Assembly: GCA_965218785.1 (NCBI GenBank)
Contig: OZ244650.1
Location: 1,344,001 to 1,408,000, forward strand
DNA from: Nitrosopumilus sp.
GTDB taxonomy: Archaea; Thermoproteota; Nitrososphaeria; Nitrososphaerales; Nitrosopumilaceae
Reading direction: 5' to 3'
DNA length: 64,000 bases
Position 1 is the stretch's first letter. Each line of letters begins with the position of its first letter. A model generated the notes under the pieces. The model was not told the DNA's origin. It ran no database searches and saw only the letters and a program-made list of their open reading frames with translations. The position numbers and the translations under genes were made by a program. This document shows positions 16,453 to 36,842 of this stretch, in pieces.

Positions 16453-16657
16453 GGGTGGTCTGGATAAAAAATCTTGGATTGTAAAGAGGGCGTTCTGCTG
16501 TTATAGTGCAGTTGAAAGCTATTTTTCTAAATCATTATGATCAAATCTATGTATTTGACAGGTTATTTTGCTCTAAAATACCATTTTTTACTAAAATTTA
16601 CGCCTAAATTAGAACTTGCGTACACTTATTTATAACATGAGTTCAATATCATTATTA

Positions 16658-17737
16658 ATGAAAACAAAAGGACAGCAGTCCATGGATGAAGTCATGACTT
16701 TTGACGTAATCCGTGGCATTCAGGCAAAAAGGGAATATTATATCACCATGTGTTCATTTTCCACCATTAGTAAACACTTTGGGTATAACAATGATCCACG
16801 AATAACACCAGAACAAAAAGCACAGCGTAAGTTAAGAGAAGCAAGAATTCCCAAGATTGCCGGTTACATTTTGTCTAATCCAGATAATTATGTCATTTCC
16901 CCCATTACAGTTTCAATTGGAACCCGGTTACAATTTGATCCTTATCCAGGATTGGGTTCAGACAGCAAGGCGGGAAAACTGTTGGTTCCACTTGATGCAG
17001 TAATTTTAGTTAATGATGGACAGCATCGTTGTGCTGCGATAAAATCAGCGTACGAAGATAATCCAAACATTGGAAGTGAGAGAGTGCCAGTGGTAATGTT
17101 TGAAGACCGAGGACTCAAACGCAGTCAGCAGTTATTTGCGGATCTTAACCAGCATGCAGTAAAGCCTACAAAATCACTTAGTCTGTTGTATGATCATAGG
17201 GATACGTTTGCACGGTTTATAGTAACTTTAGTCAATGATTTAGACATATTTTATGGCAGGACTGAATTGGAACGTACCAACATAGGAAGACGCTCCAGTA
17301 AATTTTTCACATTGAATGGTGTAGCAGAAGCCACACGACATCTTTTAAAACTTAAAACAAAATCACTGGATGATGCAAAACAGAAACTTTCCGCAGAATA
17401 TTGGGATCATGTTTCAAAAAATATTCCTGAATGGAATCTTTTAATGCAAAATAAGATAAAACCAGAAAATTTAAGAAGTGAATATATTCATGCACATACA
17501 AACGTGCTAAGTGCGTTGGGAATGGTAGGTTATGTACTTACAAAAAATTCTGATTGGAAGGAGATACTGAAAGGGTTGCAGAAAATTAACTGGAGAAAAG
17601 ACAATCCAATTTGGGAAGATAAAGTTGTAATGGACGGTAAGATGTTAAAAAACAGACTGGGGATAAAGAGGGCTGCAAATGAGATATTATCATTACTGGG
17701 AGTAGATGCTACCGTAGATGGAGATGCCAGAACATGA
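16658..17737 (+). CDS. dndB: DNA sulfur modification protein DndB (DGQHR domain)
   Basis: GIQAKREYY, KAQRKL, NDGQHR, QQLFADLN, LYDHRD; TATA-like ttatttataa ~25 nt upstream of ATG 16658. Confidence 0.93.
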   Translation: MKTKGQQSMDEVMTFDVIRGIQAKREYYITMCSFSTISKHFGYNNDPRITPEQKAQRKLREARIPKIAGYILSNPDNYVISPITVSIGTRLQFDPYPGLGSDSKAGKLLVPLDAVILVNDGQHRCAAIKSAYEDNPNIGSERVPVVMFEDRGLKRSQQLFADLNQHAVKPTKSLSLLYDHRDTFARFIVTLVNDLDIFYGRTELERTNIGRRSSKFFTLNGVAEATRHLLKLKTKSLDDAKQKLSAEYWDHVSKNIPEWNLLMQNKIKPENLRSEYIHAHTNVLSALGMVGYVLTKNSDWKEILKGLQKINWRKDNPIWEDKVVMDGKMLKNRLGIKRAANEILSLLGVDATVDGDART

Positions 17738-19242
17738 CAGTGGAATCAATCTTCCAATCCCGAACCCTTGATAGCGTTTATGATGAGATAAGGCAGGTAT
17801 ATCTTGGAGACAACAGACCGTGGATTCTAGGATTCAGCGGGGGTAAGGATTCTACATGCATGGTTCAGCTTATCTGGAATGCACTATCCAAACTACCTGC
17901 TGAAAAACTGCACAAAAACATATTCGTAATATCCTCAGACACGCTTGTGGAATCCCCAAAGGTCGTAGAGCAGATAACCAACACGCTGGATATGATGGAA
18001 AAAGCCGCACAAGAATCACATCTTCCAATATCCACCAATCTGATAAGGCCTGTAACAGAGGATACATTCTGGGTCTGTCTTTTAGGCAAGGGCTTTCCTG
18101 CCCCCAGCAACCTGTTTAGATGGTGTACTGAACGCCTGAAGATAAGAAATGCAGATCGGTTCATCCAGGACAAAGTCTCTGAATATGGCGAGGCAATAGT
18201 GGTACTTGGAACAAGAAAAGACGAGAGCGGCTCCAGACACCAACTGATGAACCTGTATGCGATAAAAAACAGCCTGCTTTCACGACACTCAAAATTTGCA
18301 CAGACATACGTCTATACTCCACTACGTGACTTTACGGCAGAAGATGTATGGAATTATCTATTACAGCAGAAAAATCCGTGGGGTGCAAACAATCGGGATC
18401 TTTTGGCATTATACCAGAACGCAAACGCATCAGAATGTCCATTGGTGGTAGACAGCAGTACACCATCATGTGGAAATAGCAGGTTTGGATGTTGGACATG
18501 TACCGTAGTCAGCGAGGATACATCTTTGCGAAACACCATTGAAAACGGGGAGGAATGGATGGAACCGTTGCTTGAACTGCGCGAGGAGCTAAAAGAGACC
18601 CAGGATCCTGCAAAAAGAAAAGTTGTCAGATCCCTCAAGCGCAGAACGGGGCAGATGAAACTTATCGATGATGCACGCAAGAAGAAATTTGATGAAAGAA
18701 TCAGCGAATCCAAAATGGAGCTGAGGAAAAAGGGTGATGACGGCAGTGATGATCCATACTCCAAACTGGTTCCTGGGCCGTACACGTTGGAGTTCTGTCA
18801 GGAATTTCTTGAAAAACTGCTCAAGGCACAGAAAAAAGTCAGGCAAACCGGGCCGGATCCCAACATGATGCTAATTTTGGATGAGGAAATTCACGAGATC
18901 CAGAGAATATGGCGCATGGAGCGGGGTGACTGGAGAAATACAGCATACCAGATATATGAAAAGATACTCGGTGAGAAACTGGTTCTGCCTCAGGAGGATT
19001 TGGGAGGATTTGGCGTTATTGAGCAGGATGTGTTGGAGCAAATTTGTCATGAAAACAACGTTCCCACACTACTGGTTTCAAAACTGCTAAACGCAGAACA
19101 TGAATTGCAGGGAATGACGCAGCATTCCAAAATCTATCCCAAAATAAACAAGATATTGTCCGAGGAATGGAGAGAAGACCTAGATGATATAGTGCGCGAC
19201 CTTGAAGGTCAGAAACACGTGAAGAAGGAGTTTGGTGGCTGA
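17734..19242 (+). CDS. dndC: DNA phosphorothioation sulfurtransferase DndC (PAPS-reductase family)
   Basis: PWILGFSGGKDS, DTLVESP, RWCTERLKI, ECPLVVD, CGNSRFGCWTCT, PGPY; 4-nt overlap with dndB. Confidence 0.96.
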   Translation: MTVESIFQSRTLDSVYDEIRQVYLGDNRPWILGFSGGKDSTCMVQLIWNALSKLPAEKLHKNIFVISSDTLVESPKVVEQITNTLDMMEKAAQESHLPISTNLIRPVTEDTFWVCLLGKGFPAPSNLFRWCTERLKIRNADRFIQDKVSEYGEAIVVLGTRKDESGSRHQLMNLYAIKNSLLSRHSKFAQTYVYTPLRDFTAEDVWNYLLQQKNPWGANNRDLLALYQNANASECPLVVDSSTPSCGNSRFGCWTCTVVSEDTSLRNTIENGEEWMEPLLELREELKETQDPAKRKVVRSLKRRTGQMKLIDDARKKKFDERISESKMELRKKGDDGSDDPYSKLVPGPYTLEFCQEFLEKLLKAQKKVRQTGPDPNMMLILDEEIHEIQRIWRMERGDWRNTAYQIYEKILGEKLVLPQEDLGGFGVIEQDVLEQICHENNVPTLLVSKLLNAEHELQGMTQHSKIYPKINKILSEEWREDLDDIVRDLEGQKHVKKEFGG

Positions 19243-21284
19243 TGATCATAACAAAGGTGATACTGCAGGATTACGGTGTGTACAGGGGCATAAACGAGTT
19301 TGATTTTACCTGTTCTGAAAAAAGACCCATAGTACTAGTTGGAGGCACAAACGGTGCTGGCAAGACAACGCTTTTTGAATCTATAATGCTGGGTCTTTAT
19401 GGAATTGCCACCATGGGAAAGCGCAGCACGAAAAAATCGTATGAGCAGTTTATCGGGCAAAAGATTCATCGATATCTCAAAAGCTCGACATCTGCAGACC
19501 ATGCATCAGTTATAGTACAGTTTAAATTTTTTCACAGTGGACGTGTTACCGAATACCGTGTAGAGCGGTCATGGATGAGGCAGGATGGCGGCATAGACGA
19601 ACAACTAAACATAAAAAAACGCAGTTCGGATCAGGAAAAATTTGATCCGTTAGGTGCCATAGAAAAATCCCACTGGCAGTCCTTTATCGAAGATTTAATT
19701 CCAAGAGGAATAGTAAAACTGTTCTTTTTTGACGGAGAAAAGGTGGTAAAGATTGCAAAAGAAGGTACCGAAGATATCACAATCCGGGAATCATTCAAGT
19801 CGCTTCTTGGAATCGAGGTGGTATCACAACTTTATACGGATCTACAGGTAAATCTGACAAGGAATCTTACCGGTAATGCAAAAACATTACAACAGGATTT
19901 TGAAAGATATAATGCAGAAAAAAACGAGATCATGGAAAGTGTAAAAAGACTCAAGTGGAGACTGGCACAAAAACAGACAGAGATGGATTCGTTGCATATG
20001 GAGATAGACAACATGGAAATCAAGATCTCAAAAATTGGGGGCATGTTTGCCAGCAAACGAGACGAGTCCAAGGGCAAACTTGCCACACAAAAACTAGCAT
20101 ATGAAAACATACAACAGAGACTCATCGAGTCATGCTCAGGCGTACTCCCATTTGCAATCATACCTGCAGAGCTTGAAATACTGCACAAACAAATTCAGAC
20201 AGACGAGTCAATTCAGCAGCAGACTGCAGGCAAAGAATTTTTTAATTCCAGACTCAAAAAGATGAAATCCAAGGTAGAGACACAGGAATTCTGGATTGAT
20301 TCAGGGCTTGATGCAGATGAAATAGACAAGGCAATCTCAGTAGCATCTGCAGTGATAAAAAAAGAGATGGTAAATAATGACTCATCTGACAAACCTGTAT
20401 TTGACCTTTCATCTGAGCAGGCAGGCAGAATCACCGAAATAATACGACAGGCAAATACTGTTGCCTTGCAGAAAATCAGCGCGGATACAAAGAAGATAAT
20501 AGAGGTCGGCGAAGAGGTTACTCTTCTTGAAACATCAATTGCAAACGCCCCTGATGATGATGAGATAGGATCACTGATGTCCAGCATGGGGAATCTGCAC
20601 ACGCAGGAAGGAGCACTACAAGCAGAGATGGATCACATAGAGGAAAAGATAGCAAGCAATATGTCCCTTAGGGGTCATCTTGACTCCAAATTACGTGGCA
20701 TAGTGTCACAGATTTACAAAACTGAAAAATCAGCGCAGCATGTGGAAATGACGCAAAAAATCCAGAAGGTTTTAGAGATATTCATAGACAAACTAAAGAT
20801 AAAAAAGATTCACTTGCTAGAGACGTATCTGCTAGATGCCATCAAGACACTAATGCACAAAAAAGAATTCATCGAGGCGGTTCAAGTCGACCCGGACACG
20901 TTTGAGGTTACACTATTTAGAAAAAACGGCGACCAATTCCCAAAGAATCTTTTATCTGAAGGAGAAAAACAGATGTTTTCAATGGCAGTTCTGTGGGCAC
21001 TGGCAAAGACATCCGGAAGACCACTGCCATTTATGATAGACACGCCGCTTGCAAGACTTGATGAGGCACACCGAACAAATATTGTTGAAAAATTCTTTCC
21101 TACAGCATCACATCAAACTTTGATATTCTCGACTGATACTGAGATAAAAAATTCTGACTATAAGAAACTGGAATCATGTCTTATGCGATCATATGCTATG
21201 GAGTACCTTGACGAGGAGGGTGCCACGCACAAGCATGATGGATATTTTTGGAACAAGGAGGGTAAGCGAATTGTTGCGATTTAA
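19242..21284 (+). CDS. dndD: DNA sulfur modification ATPase DndD (SMC-like)
   Basis: Walker A GTNGAGKT, LFFFDGEK, coiled coil, LSEGEKQ, IDTPLARLD, STDTEI. Confidence 0.95.
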   Translation: MIITKVILQDYGVYRGINEFDFTCSEKRPIVLVGGTNGAGKTTLFESIMLGLYGIATMGKRSTKKSYEQFIGQKIHRYLKSSTSADHASVIVQFKFFHSGRVTEYRVERSWMRQDGGIDEQLNIKKRSSDQEKFDPLGAIEKSHWQSFIEDLIPRGIVKLFFFDGEKVVKIAKEGTEDITIRESFKSLLGIEVVSQLYTDLQVNLTRNLTGNAKTLQQDFERYNAEKNEIMESVKRLKWRLAQKQTEMDSLHMEIDNMEIKISKIGGMFASKRDESKGKLATQKLAYENIQQRLIESCSGVLPFAIIPAELEILHKQIQTDESIQQQTAGKEFFNSRLKKMKSKVETQEFWIDSGLDADEIDKAISVASAVIKKEMVNNDSSDKPVFDLSSEQAGRITEIIRQANTVALQKISADTKKIIEVGEEVTLLETSIANAPDDDEIGSLMSSMGNLHTQEGALQAEMDHIEEKIASNMSLRGHLDSKLRGIVSQIYKTEKSAQHVEMTQKIQKVLEIFIDKLKIKKIHLLETYLLDAIKTLMHKKEFIEAVQVDPDTFEVTLFRKNGDQFPKNLLSEGEKQMFSMAVLWALAKTSGRPLPFMIDTPLARLDEAHRTNIVEKFFPTASHQTLIFSTDTEIKNSDYKKLESCLMRSYAMEYLDEEGATHKHDGYFWNKEGKRIVAI

Positions 21285-21648
21285 CAGGCTCAGGATGAGC
21301 TACCGCTCACAGAATCTGCTGGCACACCTAAAATCCAGAACGGGTATTACGCCAAACGTCATGGGTAGATTTGCAATATGTTTATCCCTCAACGACCCAT
21401 CACCTCCAAATCCTGATGAATTTGATGAAAAGGGTTCTGAGATACATGCGTCCGTATTGTTTGGCGAGTATGAGGATATCTTTATGACACTAATGGTTCA
21501 GAGGTTACGACGGGAGGGGTATGATCCGGAGAAATATCTCAACAAGATGGTACGTGCCCACTTTAACCGTGGAACCATAGCGCTGTTTGCAAGAGTCCAT
21601 GATATCTCTGACTTTGAGAGGGTCATACAACAGGAGAGACAGAATTGA
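21271..21648 (+). CDS. dndE: DNA sulfur modification protein DndE
   Basis: LKSRTGITPNVMGRFAICLSL, LFGEY, RAHFNRG; aggaggg SD upstream of TTG 21271. Confidence 0.92.
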   Translation: MLRFNRLRMSYRSQNLLAHLKSRTGITPNVMGRFAICLSLNDPSPPNPDEFDEKGSEIHASVLFGEYEDIFMTLMVQRLRREGYDPEKYLNKMVRAHFNRGTIALFARVHDISDFERVIQQERQN

Positions 21649-22838
21649 TGAACAAGATGGTCCAAGACAAGGATCTGTCCAATTCCAGATTACCGATATA
21701 CCTTGATCACAACGCAACCACACCACTTGATTCCAATGTGCTAGCTGAGATGATGCCGTACTTTACAGAAAAATTTGGAAATGCATCAAGTACGGACCAC
21801 AGACACGGACATGATGCTTCTGAGGCAGTTGAATCTGCAAGAGAGGATATAGCAAATACAATAAACGCAAAGCCCGGAGAGATAGTATTTACTGCGGGTG
21901 CCACAGAGTCTGACAATATGGCACTTGTCGGCGTCATGAACAGGTATGCAGACAAGGGAGATCATCTGATTACCTGTGTTACAGAACACAAGGCGGTACT
22001 AGATGTCGCAAGATATCTTGAGAGTGTGGGGAAAAAAGTCACGTATCTTCCAGTAGATGAGCTTGGACACGTCAATCTAGATGAGCTTCATGATGCAGTT
22101 ACAGACAAGACCGTAATGATATCAATCATGACTGCAAACAATGAGATTGGAACCATTGCAGACGTTGAATCCATTGGAAAGATAGCACATGAAAACGACA
22201 TATTGTTTCACACCGATGCGGCGCAGGCAGTAGGGCATATTCCAATGGATGTACAAAAGATGAATATTGATCTGATGTCGTTTTCAGCACACAAGATGTA
22301 CGGTCCCAAAGGAATCGGTGCGTTGTATGTAAGTGGGATAAAGCCGCGGGTACAGCTGGATCCGATCGTAAGAGGGGGTGGACAGGAGCACAATATGCGC
22401 TCTGGGACACTCAACGTTCCCGGAATAGTGGGATTTGGAAAGGCAGCCTCCATTGCAGCGACTATGATGTATCAAAATAATCAAGATCAAAAACAATTGG
22501 CAGTAACCATGCTTAAATTACTAGAAGAGAACGGCTGGCTACTCAATGGAGACCGGAACAACAGACTTTCAGGAAACCTCAATGTATGCCATCCTGGAAT
22601 AGATGGCAAGGCCATAATTAATTCAGTCTCAAAACAGATTGCAATATCTGCAGGATCTGCTTGTACGACCCAGAATGTGGAGCCATCCCACGTGATAACT
22701 GCCCTTGGATACGGTGAGGAGAGAGCATATTCCTCAATCAGGATAGGGATAGGCAGGTACAACGTAAATGATGAGACAGAATTTGCTGCAGGGGGGATAA
22801 TTGAGGCAGTCAGGACTATTAAGAGATTCAATGGGTGA
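21645..22838 (+). CDS. dndA: Cysteine desulfurase (DndA/IscS)
   Basis: YLDHNATTP, GATES, HTDAAQ, SAHKMYGPKG (PLP Lys), SAGSACT catalytic Cys; coupled to dndE. Confidence 0.93.
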   Translation: MMNKMVQDKDLSNSRLPIYLDHNATTPLDSNVLAEMMPYFTEKFGNASSTDHRHGHDASEAVESAREDIANTINAKPGEIVFTAGATESDNMALVGVMNRYADKGDHLITCVTEHKAVLDVARYLESVGKKVTYLPVDELGHVNLDELHDAVTDKTVMISIMTANNEIGTIADVESIGKIAHENDILFHTDAAQAVGHIPMDVQKMNIDLMSFSAHKMYGPKGIGALYVSGIKPRVQLDPIVRGGGQEHNMRSGTLNVPGIVGFGKAASIAATMMYQNNQDQKQLAVTMLKLLEENGWLLNGDRNNRLSGNLNVCHPGIDGKAIINSVSKQIAISAGSACTTQNVEPSHVITALGYGEERAYSSIRIGIGRYNVNDETEFAAGGIIEAVRTIKRFNG

Positions 22839-24550: not shown

Positions 24551-24552
24551 AA

Positions 24553-25593: not shown

Positions 25594-25595
25594 AC

Positions 25596-26945: not shown

Positions 26946-27164
26946 CTATATGTTCAATTTATTGTGAACAGTATTGCCAAGATGGATTAAAATCCCATGT
27001 TTTGTGGCCATTCTGCTGTACAAAAAATAGGTCGTACTAATTTCAGGCATACTACAAAGGAATACTGTCTGAATCGATCAAGAAAACGAATGATAAAAAG
27101 ATTCTAGACATCACAGATATAGCGACGATCAAAAGTTTCTGAACATTTTTGCAGGGTTTCTAAA

Positions 27165-27445
27165 AATATAATTGGCAATATCAAGCTTGAACCTTGTTAT
27201 CCTAGAGTATTGAGATATGGTCTTGTTCATTATTGTAAACATTGTATAATATTCCAAGACCAACAATGAATGTTACTTATTTTCCAGTATTGTTCCATCA
27301 TGTTAAGCCACGGAGATCCTTTTGGCAGCTGGATCAACCAGACATTGTGATTTTCCAGTAAATTCCTTGACTTTTTTTTTGATTTGTGGACTGATACCCT
27401 GTCAAGAATTAATCTAATCTTACCATCCAGCATAGTCCAGAATCC
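27165..27445 (-). mobile_element. IS630-family transposase remnant
   Basis: LILDRVSVHKSK...LPKGSPWLNMMEQYWK (DDE_3 C-terminal motif), then frameshifted ...RITRFKLDIANY. Confidence 0.75.
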
Positions 27446-27466
27446 AAAATCATGAGATGGATATTT

Positions 27467-27898
27467 TTACTTTTTCAAATATTTCCGAAATTCATTTTCC
27501 AATGATTCTAACGGTTCATCACTTTCATCATATAACATTTGGAGATATTTGATTCCACCATTTGAATATTCTTCAGCGTTTGTGAGAATCTGATCAGGTT
27601 CCCATAATATAGATACGCCTGCATCGGGATGTGTTTTAAAATAAAGTGAAATCATTAACCATCTTTCTTCTTTTGTAAATACTGCTGTAGGAATTGTATT
27701 ACTTGGTTTTGTAATTTTAGTGGGAGGAATATCCTTCTTATATCCCAGAGCCATTGCAGTTATGAATATATTTGTCATGTTTTTGTTATAAAAAAACGAT
27801 TTTGTTACTTTGATCATCTTTTTATAAAAATCAGAATATTCCTCATCATAACTAGTGTATTTTTTGAATTTAAATTCATACCGTTCATCTTGTTCCAT
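27467..27898 (-). CDS. pbeD: PbeD-like / Dnd-associated small protein
   Basis: IFITAMALGY, AEEYSNGGIKYL pattern; last gene of the helicase-ATPase module. Confidence 0.65.
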   Translation of the reverse strand: MEQDERYEFKFKKYTSYDEEYSDFYKKMIKVTKSFFYNKNMTNIFITAMALGYKKDIPPTKITKPSNTIPTAVFTKEERWLMISLYFKTHPDAGVSILWEPDQILTNAEEYSNGGIKYLQMLYDESDEPLESLENEFRKYLKK

Positions 27899-27902
27899 TC
27901 TA

Positions 27903-29990
27903 TTATGCCTCCTTTACTATTGTTCTTGATGATGTATCAGAAATTTTTTCCATTTCCAATCTCATGGCTTTTCCTATTCTTCCATTCTTCTGTAATATTT
28001 TTTGAATTGACTCTATAGGTTTACCTGTTTTGGTATCTTTTATTATTTCGGCATTGTACTCGGTGTTTGTTACAAGTAATGTGATCTGCGTGTCTGGAAG
28101 ATATATGGGGAGATCCTTTGCAGCAGATACTCTTTCTTGTCCAGATACTTTGCCAAATGGAGAATCAATTATCATTGGATAATTCGTATCAGTTACTTCT
28201 CTTACGGCTGCAATATAGCTTAAAGCAAGATATAGAGTCTGACCTGCTGATAATGTCTTTAAATTATTAACCTGTTCGGTATCAATAACTCTAATTTTAT
28301 AATTCTCATCAATTTCAATTCTGTCAATTTGCCAGTTTCTTGTAATTAGTTTTTTAAATATCTCTTCTGTTCTGTTTTGAACTTTTTCTCGAATATCTGT
28401 TAGTAATTCTTCTCTAATCTGATTCAAAATACAATGTGCTTTATCCGCCAAGTCCTTTTTTTGAATCCATTTTTTTGCAGCATCAGTTGTACCAGTGACA
28501 CGGGATATCTTTGCATCCAAATCTTGTATTTCTGATTGTAATGCTTGTTTTTGAGCTTCTTTTAGAGTCAATTCTTGATTAAGTGTTTCTTTTGCATGTC
28601 TCATACTGTCTAGATTAGTTGCAGTTTTTCTAATATCTTTCTCATCATATTCTTTTAGTTTTTCAATTGTGCCATTAACTTTTTCTTTAGCCTCTCGGTA
28701 CGCCAGCCCATATTCTTCCTCTTTTTGACGTAATTCATCTAATTTTTCAAGTATCTCTTTTGAATTCATCGTTTCGATCATGTTGGTTAAGGTCTCTTTT
28801 CCTTCATAGGAGATATTTATCAATGGTGAATTCTTTACTTTATCTCTTAATTCTTCTAAATAATTCATTTCATTACTGGTTTCATTGAATTTTGTTCCAC
28901 AGATACATTCTTTGTGTTTTATCAATTCATCTACAAAGAATTTTTTAATTGGGGGTGGAGTTTCTCCCTTAATCTCTGATTCTTTTAATAGGTTGAATGT
29001 ATGTTCTGTCGCATCCTTCAAGAGTGTTTGTGCAAAATTATCTGTAATGTATGTCATTCGATGATCTTTTTGTCCTACTACGAACTTGTCAAATTGTTCA
29101 CGATTAATTTTTTCAGAATGTAGCTGTCCTTGTAAAATTTCATATGCTTTCAATGGATGTGCTGCCATGGTCATTTCAAGCTGTTTTATATTCTGTTCAT
29201 ATTCTGTCATATTACTATGTCCTATACCTAGACCTTTCTCAATTTTTTCCAGTGTGGTTGTTTTTGATTCTAATTTATCTTGATCAATTCTAGTAGTTGT
29301 ACCAGATGATTTTGCAGCTCTGCTAGAATATAGTTTCAATATTGTTTTCCAGTGATCAATTGATCTTTCTGTAACTGGCAATCCAGAAACTTTTTCAATC
29401 CCATCCTTGATTTTTCCTGAATTTTCATCTTTAAAGAATGAATCTAACATTTCTCCATTAAAAATTACAAAACTCGCTAATTTTTCTGGTAAAAATGTAG
29501 TGACTTTGTCTAGAAATCTAGATGAATCATCTGTAGAATCCCAACTTCCATCACTACTTCTTTGTTTAAACGACTGTGTGATGAATGTGGAAAAACCTGA
29601 ATCGATTTGTCCGGCGGCATCTGAATCAAAGTCTTTCTCTCGTTCATCAGTTGTTCTCTTACAATCCAAATTTCTTGTTATTTGATATTTTGGTCCTTGA
29701 TCATCGTTAATTGTTATTGTAACTGAGCTCTCACAAGCATCACCTACCTTAGTAGCATTTAGAATATTCTGGTTTGGAATGGGTTTACCTTCTCCTTCAT
29801 TTAGAAATTCTTCTTTCTCATAAAGACACCAATACATGGCGTTAATCAAGGATGTCTTTCCTGTGGAATTATTTCCTTCAATAATCGTAAACGATTTTTT
29901 TTGATCCTGGGAAAAATCTATTAAAACATCTTCATATTGTCTAAAGTTTTTTAATTCAACATTCTTTATTGTTAGATTTTTTCCAGCCAT
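27903..29990 (-). CDS. pbeC: PbeC-like Rad50/SMC-type ATPase with zinc hook
   Basis: LKNFRQY, Walker A GNNSTGKT, FNGEML, central CICG hook, LSAGQ, IIDSPFG. Confidence 0.75.
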   Translation of the reverse strand: MAGKNLTIKNVELKNFRQYEDVLIDFSQDQKKSFTIIEGNNSTGKTSLINAMYWCLYEKEEFLNEGEGKPIPNQNILNATKVGDACESSVTITINDDQGPKYQITRNLDCKRTTDEREKDFDSDAAGQIDSGFSTFITQSFKQRSSDGSWDSTDDSSRFLDKVTTFLPEKLASFVIFNGEMLDSFFKDENSGKIKDGIEKVSGLPVTERSIDHWKTILKLYSSRAAKSSGTTTRIDQDKLESKTTTLEKIEKGLGIGHSNMTEYEQNIKQLEMTMAAHPLKAYEILQGQLHSEKINREQFDKFVVGQKDHRMTYITDNFAQTLLKDATEHTFNLLKESEIKGETPPPIKKFFVDELIKHKECICGTKFNETSNEMNYLEELRDKVKNSPLINISYEGKETLTNMIETMNSKEILEKLDELRQKEEEYGLAYREAKEKVNGTIEKLKEYDEKDIRKTATNLDSMRHAKETLNQELTLKEAQKQALQSEIQDLDAKISRVTGTTDAAKKWIQKKDLADKAHCILNQIREELLTDIREKVQNRTEEIFKKLITRNWQIDRIEIDENYKIRVIDTEQVNNLKTLSAGQTLYLALSYIAAVREVTDTNYPMIIDSPFGKVSGQERVSAAKDLPIYLPDTQITLLVTNTEYNAEIIKDTKTGKPIESIQKILQKNGRIGKAMRLEMEKISDTSSRTIVKEA

Positions 29991-30179
29991 TTACTCACCG
30001 TATTTATCAACAAAATCCGAGACTCTTCGGTCATATTCTTTTGTATATTCTTTTTCACCTAAAGAACTCTGCATTTTTTCATAATCAAGTAAATTAAGTA
30101 ATAAATTCTTAAACTCTTCTGATTCATCCAATTCTTCAATTTTTGAAATAATTAATGGATTAATGGTAAAAATACCCAA
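29991..30179 (-). CDS. pbeB: PbeB-like small acidic protein
   Basis: 62 aa; stop abuts the ATPase start; position between helicase and ATPase. Confidence 0.6.
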   Translation of the reverse strand: MGIFTINPLIISKIEELDESEEFKNLLLNLLDYEKMQSSLGEKEYTKEYDRRVSDFVDKYGE

Positions 30180-30336
30180 TTTCTTTTCTTGGTTCTATCC
30201 ATATTTTAGGATTTACCAGTGACTGGCAGTAATTCCATACACGATGTGGTATGGTCTGATGATTATTTGATGGTATGATCATCAAAAATAATTATTCCTA
30301 GATGTGTTCATAAAGATTTCAAAATTCTCATTTTTA

Positions 30337-32472
30337 TCAATCCATCCCACACAATTTTTTAATCTCATCAATTTTTGCAGAACCGTAATCTGGGTTTAAT
30401 GATATTTTGGACATCTCCTCATGCCTCTGAAGTTCTTTTTTTATAATATTTTTTTCAGATTCTGCATAAATAGGATCGGGTTTTACATTCAAGTGAGGAA
30501 TTACAAAAATATCATGTATGGTCGCATATTTTTTTCTTGTTCCATCAGGATATGTTCCAGCCCAGGTTCTAAGTATTCTTCCCCGTCTTTGTATGAATTG
30601 TTTCGGATTGCCGGTACTTGCCAACATTATGGCAGTATGTAATGGGGGAATATCTACACCCTCATCAAGTATGTTTATTGCTATGGCACAATTCAAACTG
30701 CCTGTTTGTATCTGTTCTAGTATCTTTTCTATTTCTTTCAAGTCCGTTAGTTCTGATTTTATTATACTATTTGGGATTGGAATTTGATTTAAAATTTCTT
30801 GAGCTTGATTTGCCTGTGATTTTATATTTCCTGTTTTAGATGGAGCACAATATATTATTCCATATTTTAATTTTTTATTTTTAGAAATTATTTCTTTAAA
30901 CGCATCGAGTTTTTTCTCTGCATTTTTTATTATATTTGCTCTTTTGTTTAAAAGAATTGCAAGTAATTCCTTATTTTGCTCATGAGGTTTTTTATGCAAT
31001 TCTGGCTGTAATTTTTTTGTAATTATGTGGTATTCCTCTAGTTCATCTGCGGTTAGATCAACATAATAGGGATAATAATAGTATGGAACAAGTATTTTGT
31101 TTTCTATTGCATCTTTTATGTCCATTTTAAATACAGTGGATTCTTTATGACAATTATTGCAATTAACTATGGGTTTAAAATAATCCGCTAGGAATTGGGA
31201 GCCCTCTTCATCAAAATATCTCTGAGGGGTTGCACTTAATCCCAATCTAAATTGATATTCTTCTAATAATGAATTTTGAGTATTGGCAGCACCGGCAGTA
31301 TGTACCTCGTCTGCAATCAATACGGATTGTCTTGAATTTTTTTTAACTATATCAGTAAATTCTTTTTTTGAAAATGTGGCATATGTTGTAATGATTATAG
31401 TCACATCATTGTTTGTTTTTATTTTAAAATTATGATTGTTGATAATTTTAGTTAAATTTGCCCTCCAATCTTTTTTTCCTTTTAGCGTAGTAATGACCTC
31501 AAAATCCCATTTTTTAAATTCTTTATACCATTGTGAAACCAGATTTTTGGTGGGGCAGGCAACAACTACAAACATCTCTGGATAATTTTTTTGAATCTCT
31601 TTGAGGCTTCCTATTGCAGTAAATGTTTTGCCTGTACCTGTGGCCATCTCCAATATGCCTCTGCATCCATGATCAATCCAACTATCTTTTGCGTCTTTTT
31701 GATATTTTCGCAATCTTGGCATGTGTTTTAGATTTAATTCATCAATTGATTTTGGGGCAAATTCTAGTATGTGATCTTTGAGGGCTTGGGGCAAATCTAT
31801 TATTTCAAATTCATTCTCTTTCTCATCTGATTCTAAATAATCTGGGTCATCCCAATAATTTGTAAATTTTTTAAAATCTCTATCTACATATTCCTCATGT
31901 ATCCAACGCTTGTGTATGGTAATGTCCGTATATTCATCTTCATTATCATGACTAGGTTTGATCACCCCATTAAATGAAATTGAATTTCCTTCTTCGTCAT
32001 GAAAAATACCTACGCTCAAATCTGCCTTGCCTGAATTTCGTAGTAATTCCCCGTCTAGGATATCTCCATTTGAGTTCTTGTGGATGATCAACTTTAATTC
32101 TAATTTTGGTGGATCTTGTGCCAACATCCATGCAAGTGCCCTTATGTGATCTTTTTCAAATTTTTCTTTAATCTCCTCAAAACTTTTTATCCAGTTGTCC
32201 TTAATTTTTTCTTCTCTGTTTGTAACACCTTTTTTAATTGCTGCAATATCTTCACTCGTAAATAATGATGATAGAACCAGTTTTAATTCACCGTTGTTCT
32301 TTAGAAATTCACTTAATCCCTCAGCACATAAAGCCAGATTTTTTGATGTAAAAAATCCCCCATATCTATAATATGTATTGGAATTTAAAAAACATGGAAC
32401 AAAAAAATCATTATACGGATCACTTGATACAGATGAATAACCAGATAATATTGGGAATGATTTTAAATTCAA
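30337..32472 (-). CDS. pbeA: PbeA-like SF2 (DEAD/DEAH) helicase with N-terminal PLD-like domain
   Basis: LRKYQ, MATGTGKT, DEVH, GLSATP, LDEGVDIP, QRRGRILR; N-terminal DFFVP...GFFTS. Confidence 0.8.
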   Translation of the reverse strand: MNLKSFPILSGYSSVSSDPYNDFFVPCFLNSNTYYRYGGFFTSKNLALCAEGLSEFLKNNGELKLVLSSLFTSEDIAAIKKGVTNREEKIKDNWIKSFEEIKEKFEKDHIRALAWMLAQDPPKLELKLIIHKNSNGDILDGELLRNSGKADLSVGIFHDEEGNSISFNGVIKPSHDNEDEYTDITIHKRWIHEEYVDRDFKKFTNYWDDPDYLESDEKENEFEIIDLPQALKDHILEFAPKSIDELNLKHMPRLRKYQKDAKDSWIDHGCRGILEMATGTGKTFTAIGSLKEIQKNYPEMFVVVACPTKNLVSQWYKEFKKWDFEVITTLKGKKDWRANLTKIINNHNFKIKTNNDVTIIITTYATFSKKEFTDIVKKNSRQSVLIADEVHTAGAANTQNSLLEEYQFRLGLSATPQRYFDEEGSQFLADYFKPIVNCNNCHKESTVFKMDIKDAIENKILVPYYYYPYYVDLTADELEEYHIITKKLQPELHKKPHEQNKELLAILLNKRANIIKNAEKKLDAFKEIISKNKKLKYGIIYCAPSKTGNIKSQANQAQEILNQIPIPNSIIKSELTDLKEIEKILEQIQTGSLNCAIAINILDEGVDIPPLHTAIMLASTGNPKQFIQRRGRILRTWAGTYPDGTRKKYATIHDIFVIPHLNVKPDPIYAESEKNIIKKELQRHEEMSKISLNPDYGSAKIDEIKKLCGMD

Positions 32473-33386
32473 ATAAAATCTTCCTTTATTTTTGAATTAT
32501 GAAATTTGATATTCTTTGTGTCAAGATTATGTTTATCTTTAAAAAAAATCGTACCCAAATGATTACCTTTCAAATCTTCTATTTTATCAGGATTTTTTGG
32601 ATTAAATCTAATTATTCGGAAATCAAATTCAGTGTGATGGTTTGGACATAGTACCAGCATGTTATCAAAATCATCATCTCCATTGTCTGCCATTGGCCAG
32701 ACATGATGGATTTCGGAGTATCCTGGTTCTGCATATTCTGGAAATGAATAGCTACAAATCTGACATTTGTTGCCATATATTTTTTTTAATAATTTAGATT
32801 TTCCCGTATCTCGTATTCTTCTTAGTATGGTGGATTGTATTCTTTTTGGTTCTTTTTTCATACTTGATGGAATTATTTTTGTAATATCTATATTTTTGAA
32901 TTTAGGCACTGATATCCCAAGATACGATTCTATGGTATTGTATTTTTTACAAATTTTTTGAATAGATTTCTCCCTGAATTGGATCAGGCTAATTTTGTGC
33001 ATTTTTGGAATATCTGTATCAAATCCCATATCTGAATTTGTTTTTTTATATCCCAAATTTATTTTAAATATTTGGCTAAAATATACTGCTAGAAATTTAT
33101 CCTGATAAATTTTTTTATTCATATTTTTTGTTTGTATTTTCAGTTTCTTTGTCTTGTAGATTTTTCCTGCAACTGAATATTTGCCGTTAAAATAAAATAA
33201 TAACCATTCATCATTATTCATACAATTCCAAATTTTTAAATTTTTTTCTGATGATGAAAAGCTCCACATGAATGTAATATCAGAATCTGTTTTACTTTCC
33301 ACATCTGAGGTTTTGATTTTTTTGACAAATTCATTCATAAAGATTTCTTTTTGATCTCGTTCTATAGATGTTAGAAAAACTTGCAT
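32469..33386 (-). CDS. HNH endonuclease with N-terminal EVE/PUA-like domain
   Basis: CQIC, EIHHVWPM, NMLVLCPNHH; N-terminal W...W..M..DEWLLFY; TTGA overlap with pbeA start. Confidence 0.85.
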   Translation of the reverse strand: MQVFLTSIERDQKEIFMNEFVKKIKTSDVESKTDSDITFMWSFSSSEKNLKIWNCMNNDEWLLFYFNGKYSVAGKIYKTKKLKIQTKNMNKKIYQDKFLAVYFSQIFKINLGYKKTNSDMGFDTDIPKMHKISLIQFREKSIQKICKKYNTIESYLGISVPKFKNIDITKIIPSSMKKEPKRIQSTILRRIRDTGKSKLLKKIYGNKCQICSYSFPEYAEPGYSEIHHVWPMADNGDDDFDNMLVLCPNHHTEFDFRIIRFNPKNPDKIEDLKGNHLGTIFFKDKHNLDTKNIKFHNSKIKEDFI

Positions 33387-33567
33387 TTTTTTGTCCTCAT
33401 TTATTTTCCACGTTTTATCGTCAATATCTTATCTACAATATATCTTTTTGAGACCACACATTAAAAATATTCATGCATGGATTCATCATGTGTTATCCAA
33501 CGTTTGTTTTTATTAGTCATCCCATGTTATTCAATAACTCTATAAACTCCCGGTTCCAACCATATTC

Positions 33568-33735
33568 ATGCGAGATACGATAGGTGGAAGACCATACGAG
33601 GTCAGAAAGACAGGCTCCAAGTATGTCGTCAGTTTTTATCCCCAGGTCAAAAACGCAAAGAATCCAGATGCTGTATTATTCAGACTGACTGTAACCAAAG
33701 AAGAGCTAAAGAAACTGGCAAAGATTGCAGGATAA
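33568..33735 (+). CDS. Small basic protein (55 aa, not in ORF track)
   Basis: MRDTIGGRPYEVRKTGSKYVVSFYPQVKNAKNPDAVLFRLTVTKEELKKLAKIAG*; tataaa at 33541. Confidence 0.7.
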   Translation: MRDTIGGRPYEVRKTGSKYVVSFYPQVKNAKNPDAVLFRLTVTKEELKKLAKIAG

Positions 33736-34056
33736 ACTCACTCTGATAGAGTATCAAACACCATGTTTTCATAGGTGTTGCCCGTAAATTCAAACAAAAA
33801 ACTTGAAGAACAAAAGGACATCGGAGTAAAAAAGCTAAAGATCAATATGTTCTACCCAATACAATAACAGAAAAAGATCAATGGAGGAACAGATAATGGA
33901 GGAATCCACAGTCAGAAAAAATGGACATAAAAACCCCGATATGATAAAATTGATTTAATTGTGCAATAGATCTGTTGTGTTTAGTTTGTTAAATCTATTT
34001 CAGCACAAATTTCAGATCAGAAAGCAATTACAAGACAGACAATAGATAAAAAATAA

Positions 34057-35235
34057 CTACCAACAAAACTTTTCATCAACTGGTTGTTTTTTGAAACTGC
34101 TTGGATGATACAGGTATCCAGACTCTAGGCTCTGTTCAAAGTCTTGAACAATTACTAATTCTTTCGAATCAAATGAAATTCCAATAGAAACTGATTCATG
34201 ATTAGGATTAATGATATTATCTCTATGACCCCAGTTTGCATGAGCGTCATCAAACATCATGTCATAGTTTGCATCTAAGATTCCCTTTTTCATATTCCAA
34301 GTACTACCATAGCCTCCTGCAATATTTTCAAAAATCAAATACATTTCATCGTTATTATTTTTGTATCTAAGCATTGGACCATCACCTGAATTTGAAACAT
34401 GATGAATACACTGTTCTTGTGCTAATTGCTCAGCATAAACCTGAGGAGCTTTGGCATCACCTAGACTAATTGATCTCACTCCTTTGTCTTTTCTATACTT
34501 GTTGATATCATCTAATGCAATTTGTCGCAGTTCTTGTAATGTTGGTTGTTCCGGAGGTTCAAATGATGGTATTTCAATTTTAGGAATCTGTATTTCAGAG
34601 ATTTTAATATCTGGAATTACTACAGATTCTTGAGTTTCATGGATAATATTTTCAATCATTAGCGGTACTTCAGTTAAAGAATCTTCAAAAGATTCGATTG
34701 ATTCAGAAACATTGGAGGGTAATTTAATTTCATCAAGAATCTTTTCCAAATCATTGTACAGATTTTCTTCATAGTCAATGTCAATTAAATCATATTTGAT
34801 TTCAATTCCTAAATGACTGTTAAATTGAGTTGTGTATACATTGTTTTTTAAAGTCAAGGTGACATCTTGAACAACATTTGCATTTAGAGGCATATCCCTT
34901 ACTAGGTAAAATATTTCATTGCCACATTGAATTTCTACATTTCTAGTTCCAAATGTGTTCATAATACAATCATTCCAAATTTGATCAGTTTTTTGTGAAG
35001 TAATTTGTTTTAAATTAAATTCAGATACATCTACTATTCCTAGTACAAAAAGAAATACAAACCCTACAATTACAACTCCAATTCCCATTCCTAAATTTTT
35101 TGATTGTTTTTTATTGCGATTGTTTTTGTAAGAGCCTCGTTTTATATTTCCATCATATCTGTTATCATATTTCCCTCCTTTCCAGCCCCTCCAATCATCA
35201 AAGGTATTTTCTGCTGTGTCATCCCATCTTCCCAT
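34057..35235 (-). CDS. Membrane-anchored CAP (SCP/PR-1) domain protein
   Basis: One N-terminal TM; INKYR, FENIA, WGHRDNIINP, SIGIS, VQDF. Confidence 0.8.
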   Translation of the reverse strand: MGRWDDTAENTFDDWRGWKGGKYDNRYDGNIKRGSYKNNRNKKQSKNLGMGIGVVIVGFVFLFVLGIVDVSEFNLKQITSQKTDQIWNDCIMNTFGTRNVEIQCGNEIFYLVRDMPLNANVVQDVTLTLKNNVYTTQFNSHLGIEIKYDLIDIDYEENLYNDLEKILDEIKLPSNVSESIESFEDSLTEVPLMIENIIHETQESVVIPDIKISEIQIPKIEIPSFEPPEQPTLQELRQIALDDINKYRKDKGVRSISLGDAKAPQVYAEQLAQEQCIHHVSNSGDGPMLRYKNNNDEMYLIFENIAGGYGSTWNMKKGILDANYDMMFDDAHANWGHRDNIINPNHESVSIGISFDSKELVIVQDFEQSLESGYLYHPSSFKKQPVDEKFCW

Positions 35236-35920
35236 ATCTAATCATCATTTTGTGTATATTTTTCTTTTAAAAAAAGATATTGTTAATCTGTTCCAAAATA
35301 GTATTCAATCATTTTTAGATTCTCATCAATCAAACAGACAAAGAATTACTACTTTGTTAAGTACTGTAAGAGGAATTACACTTCCTTCTGGAGCAGGAAT
35401 ACAATTTGATTTCTCATCAAACAATATCTTGGACTTGCCAGGATTATTTAGAAGATTAGATCAATGGGCTGGAGAGAATAATACAAAAATCGTTATTGCA
35501 GTAGATGAAGCTCAAGAATTTAGAAAAAGCAAACACATGGATATGACAAACATATTTGCATCAGTATATGATAACTGTAGAAATATTATTTTAATTTTGA
35601 CAGGTTCAGAAATTGGAGTTTTTTATGATTTCTTGGCTCTTGAAGATGCTAATTCAACATTATTTGGAAGAGCAAAAAAAGAAATCAAAATTAATCCATT
35701 ATCCCATCAGCAAGGTATTGAATTTCTTAAAGTAGGATTAGAACAACAGAAATTAAAAAAATTTGATGAATCTGTATTATCTCATGCTGTTGATGAACTC
35801 GGCGGTATTGTTGGATGGTTAAATGAATTTGGACTACGATGTCTGGAACATAAAAAAAATGGAAAAGAATTCATTAAGGATATTAAAAAAATAGGGTTCT
35901 GGTGCAAAACAGTGATCTGA
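35216..35920 (+). pseudogene. Truncated archaeal AAA/ATPase_2-family ATP-binding protein
   Basis: Walker B IAVDEAQEF, LTGSEIG, LFGR, GGIVGWL present; Walker A and C-terminus missing. Confidence 0.65.
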
Positions 35921-36003
35921 TCATCAAAATACACCAGAACCGTGCTACTACCAGTAACTGACATGCGGTACATTGGTTTTCAAACATGACAAATTATCAA
36001 CAA

Positions 36004-36842
36004 TCATCTATTTTTTACCACAAGTTGTTTTTTCCGTTTTAGATATCTAGAGTCGGGCGGATATTCTATGTTATCTTTTATCTTCATTTCAGGTAAAATC
36101 GATGTGACCCATTTTTTTACAATCGTCGTTCTGTTATCCTTCAAGTAGGAGGACACGGTTGTTCCATGATCTTCTTCTATGATAATGTCGCCACGTTCAA
36201 ATGCCGTATCACACAATCTACAAAATAACAACCCGTTAGATGGATTCATAGAGTTTTTAGGATCCTCTACTTTCATAGTGCTATATGGTACAATATGAGC
36301 TCCTATCATATATTTTGGAATTTTAAATTCACAAAGAACACATTTGTGGTATTGTTTTTCTAGAATCCGCTTAAATGCCGTCTGTTTTGTTCGAACAGAG
36401 ATGGTTCGCATAGAGCCATCAGAGTAAAAATTCTTTGTTTAATTTCTTCTTTGCCCTGATTGATAGCGTGTTCTTCTAACAAAGAATATTCATCGGTTTT
36501 AGAACCTGCCAATCTCCATGTTCCCATACCTCTGCCTTTTTTTGTTTTCCTCCAATCTACAAGAATGTTCTTTAGACGTAATCTGCGAATTTCTCCAGCT
36601 ATCTCCTTGTACAATTTGTTCCCGTGTTCATTAGTATAATCATCAAAGTTGACCCCCAAGCGTGCTGTTACAAATTTGTCCAGATCAGTTTTATTGTGCC
36701 ATATAGGCTTGAGTTCATCTGGTTTAGAGTAGGATTTGCCATCATTGCGTATCATGTAGATCGGTCTGCCGGGTTGAGTAAGATATTCCCAGACATACTG
36801 TTGAAGACCAGTAAATTCTGAATATTTCTTGTATTGTCTCAA
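36004..36842 (-). pseudogene. Frameshifted HNH endonuclease (N-terminal winged-helix-like domain + HNH)
   Basis: ORFs 36360..36842 and 36004..36411 join by one frameshift near 36430; CVLC, AHIVPYS, NGLLFCRLCD. Confidence 0.7.

Follow-up and report, generated by a model that had tools for sequence, protein, structure and literature searches.

PbeABCD of Haloterrigena jeotgali A29 (Xiong et al. 2019, PMC6459918) comprises, in the accessible parts of that report, a PbeA in which a PLD fold is joined to an SF2 helicase, a small PbeB, a CxC ABC-ATPase (PbeC) and a small PbeD, with dnd genes as neighbours. PbeABCD is also the CxC ABC-ATPase/DndE-anchored system of Rakesh et al. 2024 (PMC10853773, partial text). 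The founding study saw no viral DNA cleavage (PMC6459918), whereas the later comparative study took the HKD domain to imply cleavage (PMC10853773), each as far as its accessible text goes, and a 2025 review calls the Pbe restriction event "obscure" (PMC12707154). The operon that we analysed shares the core of the H. jeotgali system, but the HKD residues of its PbeA are all replaced, and a fifth gene, encoding a PUA-HNH protein, is fixed upstream. Neither HKD loss nor an upstream PUA-HNH is mentioned in the accessible parts of PMC6459918 and PMC10853773, and our literature search found no paper on an HNH-linked Pbe variant; a mention in Krishnan et al. 2020 or in the supplement of PMC10853773 is possible. 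The operon represents a large branch of Pbe, so far unremarked, in which the HKD site is dead and an HNH gene lies upstream.

The operon lies on the minus strand of a 64,000-nt stretch of Nitrosopumilus sp. DNA (assembly GCA_965218785.1, contig OZ244650.1, positions 1,344,001-1,408,000 of the forward strand; hereafter the window). Its first gene (32469..33386) encodes a 305-aa predicted endonuclease of PUA(EVE/YTH/ASCH-like)-HNH type, and its second (30337..32472), read from a TTG start, encodes a 711-aa PbeA that joins a degenerate HKD/PLD domain to an intact SF2 helicase. At the junction the minus strand reads GAT TTT ATT TGA, with TTG AAT TTA in an overlapping frame, so that the HNH stop and the pbeA start share the TTGA at 32472-32469, as the first-pass annotation had stated. 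PbeA matched the PADLOC PbeA model (PDLC02707; E 7.6e-176, span 3-694) and the Pfam families ResIII, DEAD and Helicase_C. Next come a 62-aa PbeB candidate (29991..30179), for which we read the ORF and a junction where its stop abuts the pbeC ATG; the 695-aa CxC-type ABC ATPase PbeC (27903..29990), which matched PADLOC PbeC (E 6.6e-86) and Pfam AAA_23 and SMC_N and has a C-I-C motif visible in its translation; and a 143-aa PbeD candidate (27467..27898) in the DndE-cognate position.

No Pfam or PADLOC model matched either the PbeB or the PbeD candidate, and each has relatives at the same position of loci L103 and L104 (71-72% identity for PbeB, 75-77% for PbeD). The ORF downstream of PbeC in other loci, among them L115 and L021 with their intact HKD, is also homologous to the PbeD candidate, and the PbeD-position ORF of the related locus L145 matched PADLOC PbeD at 5.6e-18. 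The order HNH-A-B-C-D was found again in L103 and L104, bearing out the earlier proposal of a five-gene HNH-PbeABCD operon with the HNH as gene 1. Convergent with this operon is a dndB-C-D-E-A phosphorothioate modification cluster on the plus strand (16616..22838; PADLOC E-values: DndB 1.7e-120, DndC 4.4e-184, DndD 2e-174, DndE 1.1e-42, DndA 6.7e-155), which places a linked DNA modification module beside the window's Pbe operon. Genes of the dnd type also adjoin the HNH-Pbe loci of genomes G287 and G347 and the second copy in G068.

The first-pass annotation had claimed that PbeA lost both the HxK and the GSxN of its catalytic motif while keeping its SF2 helicase motifs, and both parts of this claim held. 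The peptide GKADLSVGIFHDEEGNSISFNGVIKP, which spans PbeA residues 148-173 (window positions 31954-32031), carries D-L-S in place of H-x-K and G-V-I-K in place of G-S-x-N. In an HMM-guided alignment of 204 PbeA homologues, 201 of which were classed for column statistics (74 intact, 127 in the degenerate clade), all four positions are replaced in the window protein, where D151, S153, V170 and K172 stand against H, K, S and N of intact PbeAs. The 74 intact sequences have H151, K153 and N172 in 100% and S170 in 99%, and this complete conservation of H, K and N argues that catalysis matters where the HKD site is present. Across the 127 degenerate-clade sequences, the catalytic His position is occupied by K (35%), D (30%) or R (11%), Lys153 is retained in 39%, Asn172 in 11% and Asp159 in 72%, and no polar residue is conserved clade-wide at the H, K, S and N positions. 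The SF2 motifs MATGTGKT, DEVH, SAT and QRRGR are all present in the window PbeA.

A Pfam search of the window PbeA matched no PLDc family, and PF13091 was carried by none of its 120 closest database homologues in their precomputed Pfam annotation. Motif degeneracy is more than a chance occurrence: of the 119 closest homologues with 600 aa or more, 104 share it. Outside the degenerate clade, a scan of genome contigs found HxK...GSxN kept in 52 of 54 full-length PbeAs, the other two being unreadable, in agreement with the earlier expectation that related PLD-helicases normally keep this motif; the haloarchaeal Natronomonas homologue (L019) is among the intact-motif PbeAs. A PLD domain (pfam13091) is reported for the characterised H. 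jeotgali PbeA in the accessible part of PMC6459918. We omitted L014 (letters masked at the motif) and L048 (N-domain unaligned) from the intact and degenerate counts, and kept three shortened ORFs with an intact motif (L018, L037, L052) outside the intact loci counted below. About 23 further genome-contig loci, mostly cyanobacterial, were rejected as PbeA and left uncounted, as they encode helicases of 400-550 aa without the N-domain, several of them beside LexA.

Judged from these substitutions, the N-terminal domain of the window PbeA (residues 1-250, 31723..32472) is predicted to be a pseudo-enzyme, and it is not decaying. Its AF2 model has a pLDDT of 90.5, and its top Foldseek matches are PLD-fold proteins: SauUSI (PDB 7clg, the best match, E 2.9e-4), the FAM83-type BJ-TSA-9, NgoAVII R, NucT and BfiI, with PLD, Tdp1 and Zucchini as further PLD-fold matches. 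The structural residues G155, F157, F167 and G169 are kept in the window PbeA and are at least 94% conserved in the degenerate and intact groups alike, and N-domain identity divided by helicase identity gives 0.92 for the degenerate and 0.95 for the intact group. SauUSI is an ATP-dependent type IV restriction enzyme that also places its PLD domain before the helicase; its single chain carries a working PLD nuclease and, in addition, a target-recognition domain. In the window the PLD site is instead dead, and the operon supplies an HNH nuclease as a second polypeptide. The well-preserved fold, with Lys153 and Asp159 surviving in part of the clade, could mean that the N-domain still cuts through other residues and that the HNH supplies a second strand-cutting activity. 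We consider this very improbable, as the HKD chemistry of the PLD superfamily requires a His nucleophile, no polar residue holds clade-wide at the four catalytic positions, and the pseudo-enzymes BJ-TSA-9 and TrmBL2 rank among the best structural matches.

Residues 208-261 of the protein encoded by the first gene match Pfam HNH and HNH_2, and the protein matches PADLOC mREase_IV (E 8.4e-8). Its catalytic and zinc-binding residues C208, C211, H227, H228, N242, C247, H250 and H251 are invariant among 48 homologues, across which the PUA domain varies far more than the HNH domain does. The family also retains the aromatic positions W41, W53 and 130. In the AF2 model (pLDDT 81), the HNH domain (residues 191-305) superposes on that of TagI (PDB 6ghs; Z 17.2, rmsd 2.2, 112 residues aligned, 27% identity), an enzyme whose reader is SRA, not PUA. 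Residues 1-160 superpose on the m5C reader of T. gammatolerans McrB (PDB 6p0g; Z 10.5, rmsd 2.8, 125 residues, 22% identity), which is fused to a GTPase motor, not a nuclease, and on EVE, ASCH and YTH domains at Z 7.3-8.9. The model thus predicts a PUA-superfamily reader fold in which EVE, YTH and ASCH are indistinguishable, and only HNH families, not EVE, were matched in Pfam at E 0.01. The earlier description of the gene as EVE/PUA-HNH therefore stands for the HNH and, from the model, the PUA-like fold, but not for EVE specifically, as YTH and ASCH fit about equally well.

The described modification-dependent restriction endonuclease VcaM4I (EVE-HNH; PMC7897488, PDB 6yex) likewise has about 300 aa, an N-terminal PUA-superfamily reader and a C-terminal HNH. 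Foldseek aligned our HNH protein to it over the whole chain (E 1.5e-6), and VIA gave Z 9.1 with an rmsd of 13.4 over 234 residues, from which we conclude that the domains match while their relative orientation differs. VcaM4I is stand-alone and NTP-independent, whereas we found the window's HNH family only directly before a degenerate PbeA. No fused HNH-PbeA protein was found, although the empty search for longer proteins is weak evidence, the longest of the best 150 profile hits having 549 aa.

We scored retention of HxK against the presence of the upstream HNH, the comparison that the first-pass annotation had proposed. The HNH family was directly upstream in 29 of 29 degenerate-motif PbeA loci with readable upstream DNA (the window, L082, L083, L086, L101 and 24 metagenome loci), which are not independent observations, since they reflect one clear evolutionary event and include several near-duplicates. 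Of 59 full-length loci whose motif is intact, drawn from the genome-contig scan (52), the phylum sample (4) and metagenomes (3), none had it directly upstream. Three more metagenome loci have the HNH-PbeA pair with the motif cut off or the gene broken. Across 19 of 19 measured pairs, the distance from the HNH stop to the first start codon in the PbeA frame was -38 to +10 nt. HNH and PbeA distances were strongly correlated (Mantel r 0.92, a value reached by 0 of 2000 permutations), and the two genes remain paired in L120, L123 and L146, where PbeC and PbeD sit on the opposite strand. In a 401-genome phylum sample, full-length matches to the HNH family occurred only in G000, G287, G068 and G347, all of which carry a degenerate PbeA, and the genome (G257) of the nearest intact-HKD relative on the tree, L087, had no HNH-family match at E <= 1e-8. 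These observations indicate that the first gene encodes a putative HNH endonuclease with intact catalytic residues that is co-inherited with PbeA, in a position that permits translational coupling.

HNH genes of other families are common around dnd and pbe loci (PMC10853773, partial text), so HNH accretion there is not unusual in itself. In L002 the intact-HKD PbeA is preceded by an HNH of 142 aa that is unrelated to the window's, and L109, L116, L117, L120 and L124-L126 encode a second HNH protein, about 350 aa long. A 305-aa ORF upstream of the intact-HKD PbeA of L085, suspected because its length equals that of the HNH protein, proved unrelated to it (hhalign probability 0.3%).

The PUA-HNH could instead work independently as a type IV (modification-dependent) restriction enzyme, in the manner of VcaM4I or TagI, hitch-hiking beside pbe in a defence island and acting alone on modified phage DNA, with HKD loss being unrelated drift in a system that never cut. 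Its fold and domain order do match the stand-alone EVE-HNH and SRA-HNH enzymes, PADLOC labels it mREase_IV, defence genes cluster and other HNH genes are nearby, and the accessible text of PMC6459918 saw no DNA cleavage for canonical Pbe. This last point also counts against the nuclease swap proposed below, since a nuclease may then not be central to Pbe at all. We nevertheless regard an independent enzyme as unlikely, given the strict adjacency (in every measured pair the stop and start overlap or lie no more than 10 nt apart), the 29/29 against 0/59 distribution, the finding of the full-length family only with PbeA in the 401 genomes, the co-divergence of the pair, its integrity where the rest of the operon is inverted, and the full conservation of H, K and N in intact PbeAs.

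A helicase-only tree groups the degenerate PbeAs in a single clade (97 rows, support 97), with L101 as an outlier. An AU test against a single origin gave p 0.038, for a group that was named after inspection of the tree, and L101 may be a second origin of HKD loss. The correlation between HKD loss and the upstream HNH rests on one clear evolutionary event.

We propose, at a probability of roughly 0.65, that Pbe has a conserved five-gene subtype, HNH-PbeABCD, in which a dedicated PUA-HNH took the place of the HKD nuclease, so that the nuclease was swapped for a non-homologous one and not lost. The observation on which the first-pass annotation was built is confirmed, and its interpretation, that cleavage passed to a modification-sensing HNH, is supported, neither of the two outcomes that it named as refuting having been observed. 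We infer that the HNH protein cuts DNA, docks on PbeA and senses modification through its PUA domain. PbeC and PbeD would scan DNA and read the phosphorothioate status set by the neighbouring dndBCDEA, PbeA would translocate on DNA with ATP, and the HNH protein would nick or cut non-self DNA while bound to the complex, the retained pseudo-HKD domain being its most plausible anchor. The role of the PUA domain would be either to sense a modified base or to hold the HNH in an auto-inhibited state until it is engaged, much as the EVE domain and linker do in VcaM4I (PMC7897488, partial text).

The accessible text of Rakesh et al. (PMC10853773) proposes suicide action and back-up nucleases for such systems, with PbeB as a releasable negative regulator, and these proposals would fit an HNH that acts as a back-up or abortive-infection effector. 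PbeABCD would then sense the invader without cutting, the released HNH would damage host or viral DNA indiscriminately, and the dead HKD would mark a shift from restriction to abortive infection. We doubt this, as the back-up effectors in that text lie at system boundaries, often on the other strand, whereas our HNH gene takes the first operon position and overlaps pbeA.

A more elaborate form of nuclease displacement, which we put forward tentatively, is that the pseudo-HKD domain was repurposed as a docking and allosteric platform for the PUA-HNH. The complex would then be a two-sensor machine, in which PbeCD read host phosphorothioate, the PUA domain reads a base modification or a flipped base, and the helicase licenses the HNH only if both report foreign DNA.

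How Pbe stops viruses is an unsettled matter, on which this clade is a natural experiment. The HKD site has been lost only where a second, intact nuclease is fixed to PbeA, which is the pattern expected if a nuclease is indispensable, and the distribution suggests that DNA cutting is a needed part of Pbe action. The clade also offers a clean experimental handle, since a small gene of its own encodes the nuclease, so that deletions or mutations there leave the helicase untouched. It adds a pseudo-enzyme PLD domain whose retained role, in assembly or regulation, is open to probing. The PADLOC definition of Pbe has four genes, and tools that call the window PbeA as standard Pbe overlook the fifth. 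If the two-sensor reading is true, this Pbe branch could act against unmodified as well as hypermodified viruses, and Pbe immunity would generally need a nuclease, which would settle whether the system acts with no cleavage or through cleavage by the HKD site.

The gene for the HNH protein (305 aa; 33386..32469, minus strand) is the first of five tightly packed ORFs. It is followed on the same strand by the PbeA helicase (711 aa; 32472..30337; PADLOC PbeA, E = 7.6e-176), a 62-aa ORF that is a PbeB candidate by position (30179..29991), the PbeC ATPase (695 aa; 29990..27903; PADLOC PbeC, E = 6.6e-86) and a 143-aa ORF that is, likewise by position, a PbeD candidate (27898..27467). As the first-pass annotation had proposed, the HNH stop codon overlaps the TTG start of pbeA, with four bases, TTGA, common to both. 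At the same positions, two other loci (L103 and L104) have ORFs that share 71-77% identity with the PbeB and PbeD candidates, and the ORFs at the PbeD position are homologous between loci whose PbeA retains the N-domain HKD motif HxK...GSxN (intact) and loci in which it is replaced (degenerate). A complete dndB-C-D-E-A cluster on the plus strand (16616-22838) converges on the pbe ORFs.

We aligned 204 PbeA homologues to the family HMM, 201 of which were classed. In the intact proteins (n = 74), H151, K153 and N172 are present at 100% and S170 at 99%. The window PbeA has D151, S153, V170 and K172 at these columns, so that the earlier reading of residues 148-173, in which both HxK and GSxN were lost, proved correct, as did the statement that the SF2 helicase motifs are intact in sequence. 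No PLD family was detected in this protein by Pfam. The names given to related proteins in the database indicate Nitrososphaerota. Of the 119 closest homologues there with a length of 600 aa or more, the motif is degenerate in 104 and intact in 15. Across the degenerate clade (n = 127 sequences), the histidine position is occupied by K (35%), D (30%) or R (11%), while Lys153 is kept in 39% and Asn172 in 11%; an alternative to loss of function is that PbeA keeps residual HKD activity. Conservation stays at 94-100% for the motif's structural residues (G155, F157, F167 and G169), and the ratio of N-domain to helicase identity is 0.92 for degenerate versus 0.95 for intact PbeAs. From these data, we conclude that the degenerate N-domain is still under selection, and that only its chemistry appears to be gone. 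A model of PbeA residues 1-250 (pLDDT 90.5) has PLD-fold proteins as its top structural matches (SauUSI, NgoAVII R-protein, NucT and BfiI), and also matches PLD-fold proteins without catalytic activity, among them BJ-TSA-9 and TrmBL2. Separately, the helicase domain carries a short C-x2-C-(x)-H insertion at residues ~436-447 (~31132-31167), which is found only in the window's subclade (homologues P0001, P0020, P0025 and P0033) and is absent from the other aligned PbeAs.

Eight residues of the HNH protein (C208, C211, H227, H228, N242, C247, H250 and H251) are invariant in 48 homologues, and the HNH centre and zinc ligands of this family are therefore predicted to be intact. The protein is modeled as two domains (pLDDT 81). 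Residues 191-305 match the HNH domain of TagI (Z 17.2, rmsd 2.2, 112 residues), and for residues 1-160 the matches are readers of the PUA superfamily, led by the T. gammatolerans McrB N-domain that binds m5C (Z 10.5, rmsd 2.8, 125 residues). Given these matches, the label "EVE/PUA-HNH" used in the first-pass annotation stands as PUA-HNH; within that superfamily the reader may be EVE-, ASCH- or YTH-like, domains of all three kinds ranking behind McrB (Z 7.3-8.9), and the window protein has no Pfam EVE match. The whole chain aligns to the EVE-HNH enzyme VcaM4I (Foldseek E = 1.5e-6), and a rival explanation is that PUA-HNH is an independent type IV enzyme. The PUA-type N-domain also matches parts of unrelated longer frames of 553, 736 and 309 aa (L139 and L142 in genome G085, and L140 in genome G206) from the same phylum, indicating that this reader domain occurs in other architectures too.

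The association of HNH with PbeA was followed in three independent retrievals. A scan of genome_contigs returned 80 loci with 25-36% identity to the window PbeA, 54 of which contain a PbeA ORF 600 aa or longer. Among these long PbeAs, 52 are intact, one is masked at the motif (L014) and one is without the N-domain (L048). At none of these loci was the HNH family found directly upstream of PbeA; that place is mostly taken by genes for DndA, large Sigma70_r4 proteins, methylases or MTaX1, and the 142-aa HNH upstream in L002 is unrelated to the PUA-HNH family. Among 401 genomes sampled from the window's phylum, four carry degenerate PbeAs (G000, G287, G068 with two copies, and G347); in every case an HNH-family ORF ends where PbeA starts, and full-length matches to the HNH profile are confined to these same four genomes. 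None of the intact PbeAs of this sample (G366, G168, G257 and G264) has the HNH family upstream. A metagenome scan seeded with the PbeA N-domain gave 30 loci, 27 with HNH directly upstream; the motif is readable in 24 of these and degenerate in all 24, and in the other three (L106, L108 and L132) it is disrupted or truncated. The three metagenome loci lacking HNH (L112, L114 and L115) have an intact motif, HQK...GS.NE. HNH is thus tied to pbe in other genomes (G287, G068, G347 and the 27 metagenome loci), as the coupling originally noticed in the window implied. Scored against motif retention, the HNH family is present at 29/29 degenerate and 0/59 intact loci, counts that show how stable the pairing is and do not amount to independent replicates. 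Measured from the HNH stop to the earliest start codon in the PbeA frame, the gap is -38 to +10 nt in 19/19 pairs, HNH and PbeA distances are correlated (Mantel r = 0.92; as high in 0/2000 permutations), and the pair is still together in three loci where PbeC-PbeD is divergent (L120, L123 and L146). Nine further HNH/PbeA pairs in the protein database, put together because their contigs have equal lengths, are a hint only. Another rival explanation is that the HNH protein is a suicide effector.

In a FastTree phylogeny built on helicase columns only (173 rows below 85% identity), 97 degenerate rows form one clade (support 97), whose nearest neighbour is the intact PbeA of G257 (L087); IQ-TREE on 54 rows also recovered a degenerate clade, of 25 (SH-aLRT 95). 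The second PbeA copy of G068 (L101) falls outside the main clade on a long branch. In its motif, D stands in place of H and P in place of S, with K and N kept. Its upstream HNH protein, which matches the family HMM at 2.8e-20, is longer (452 aa from the ORF caller's first start, or 516 aa if counted from a start further upstream in the wider locus L145). Constraining L101 to the clade cost 32.6 log-likelihood units (AU p = 0.038), which is only suggestive of a separate origin because the group was named after the tree had been inspected. One firm event, and possibly a second, thus underlie the association.

The pbe block has a G+C content of 30-33% in a window mostly at 39-53%, which suggests that it was gained separately from the dnd genes. 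The low-G+C region extends over 24000-36000 (30-37%, versus 39-53% in most of the remaining window and 39-43% in the adjoining dnd cluster), and contains the HNH-pbe operon, two unknown ORFs (24553-26945, plus strand), a CAP-domain membrane protein (34057-35235, minus strand) and a truncated archaeal ATPase_2 ORF. Immediately downstream of pbeD, a 67-aa ORF (27230-27433, minus strand), which we take to resemble the C-terminal portion of a DDE transposase of the IS630 type, may be a remnant at the edge of the acquired block. Directly after dndA, on the strand of the dnd cluster, lie two ParB-like ORFs (22995-24550; ParB_N plus HTH, 272 aa, and HTH_ParB, 245 aa). Two overlapping minus-strand ORFs of 135 and 160 aa (36004-36842) look like a single ~290-aa HNH gene broken by a frame change; the 135-aa ORF matches Pfam HNH_2 and PADLOC HNH PDLC04132 (positions 147-272 in a model of 286), and shares 33% identity with the C-terminal half of an ORF of 272 aa located after pbeD in L103.

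In G287, in G347, at the second G068 copy and at several metagenome loci, dnd genes likewise lie beside HNH-Pbe; the first G068 copy instead adjoins a type IIG enzyme and an HKD+Snf2 protein. Another HNH protein (~340-355 aa; Pfam HNH, HNH_4 or HNH_5; PADLOC PtuB-like) recurs beside the PUA-HNH/PbeA pair, usually between dndA and PUA-HNH on the opposite strand (L109 1253-2269, L116 76-1116, L117 3980-5035, L124 3998-5050, L125 188-1240, L126 176-1225, L120 8230-9294 and L146 13424-14488). In the degenerate clade's sister subclades, pbeD is followed by a conserved ORF (580-743 aa) that matches neither Pfam nor PADLOC models (L143 16054-18168, L144 15923-18136, L146 4855-7086, L109 8240-10062, L116 7030-8779 and L117 10969-12732) and may be a sixth gene; no counterpart was found in the window.

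Previously, PbeA was described as a PLD, Res and helicase protein for which cleavage was not observed (Xiong et al., PMC6459918), and was later re-annotated as HKD plus SF2, with HKD in the "vast majority" of systems and with nucleases near dnd genes that include HNH, with wHTH and SAD/SRA domains (Rakesh et al., PMC10853773). The parts of these two papers covered here mention neither of the features combined at the loci analyzed, an HKD-inactive PbeA and a fixed PUA-HNH. As no other description was found in the literature searched, we rate this combination as a new form of the known Pbe system, apparently undescribed in that literature. The simplest account is that the nuclease of PbeA was replaced by non-orthologous displacement: PUA-HNH would have become fixed ahead of pbeA, after which the HKD site would have decayed, with the domain kept, probably for assembly. 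In VcaM4I, the HNH is held inactive by the EVE domain and linker (PMC7897488), and by analogy this suggests that the PUA-HNH nuclease may stay harmless until a target is engaged by the Pbe machinery.
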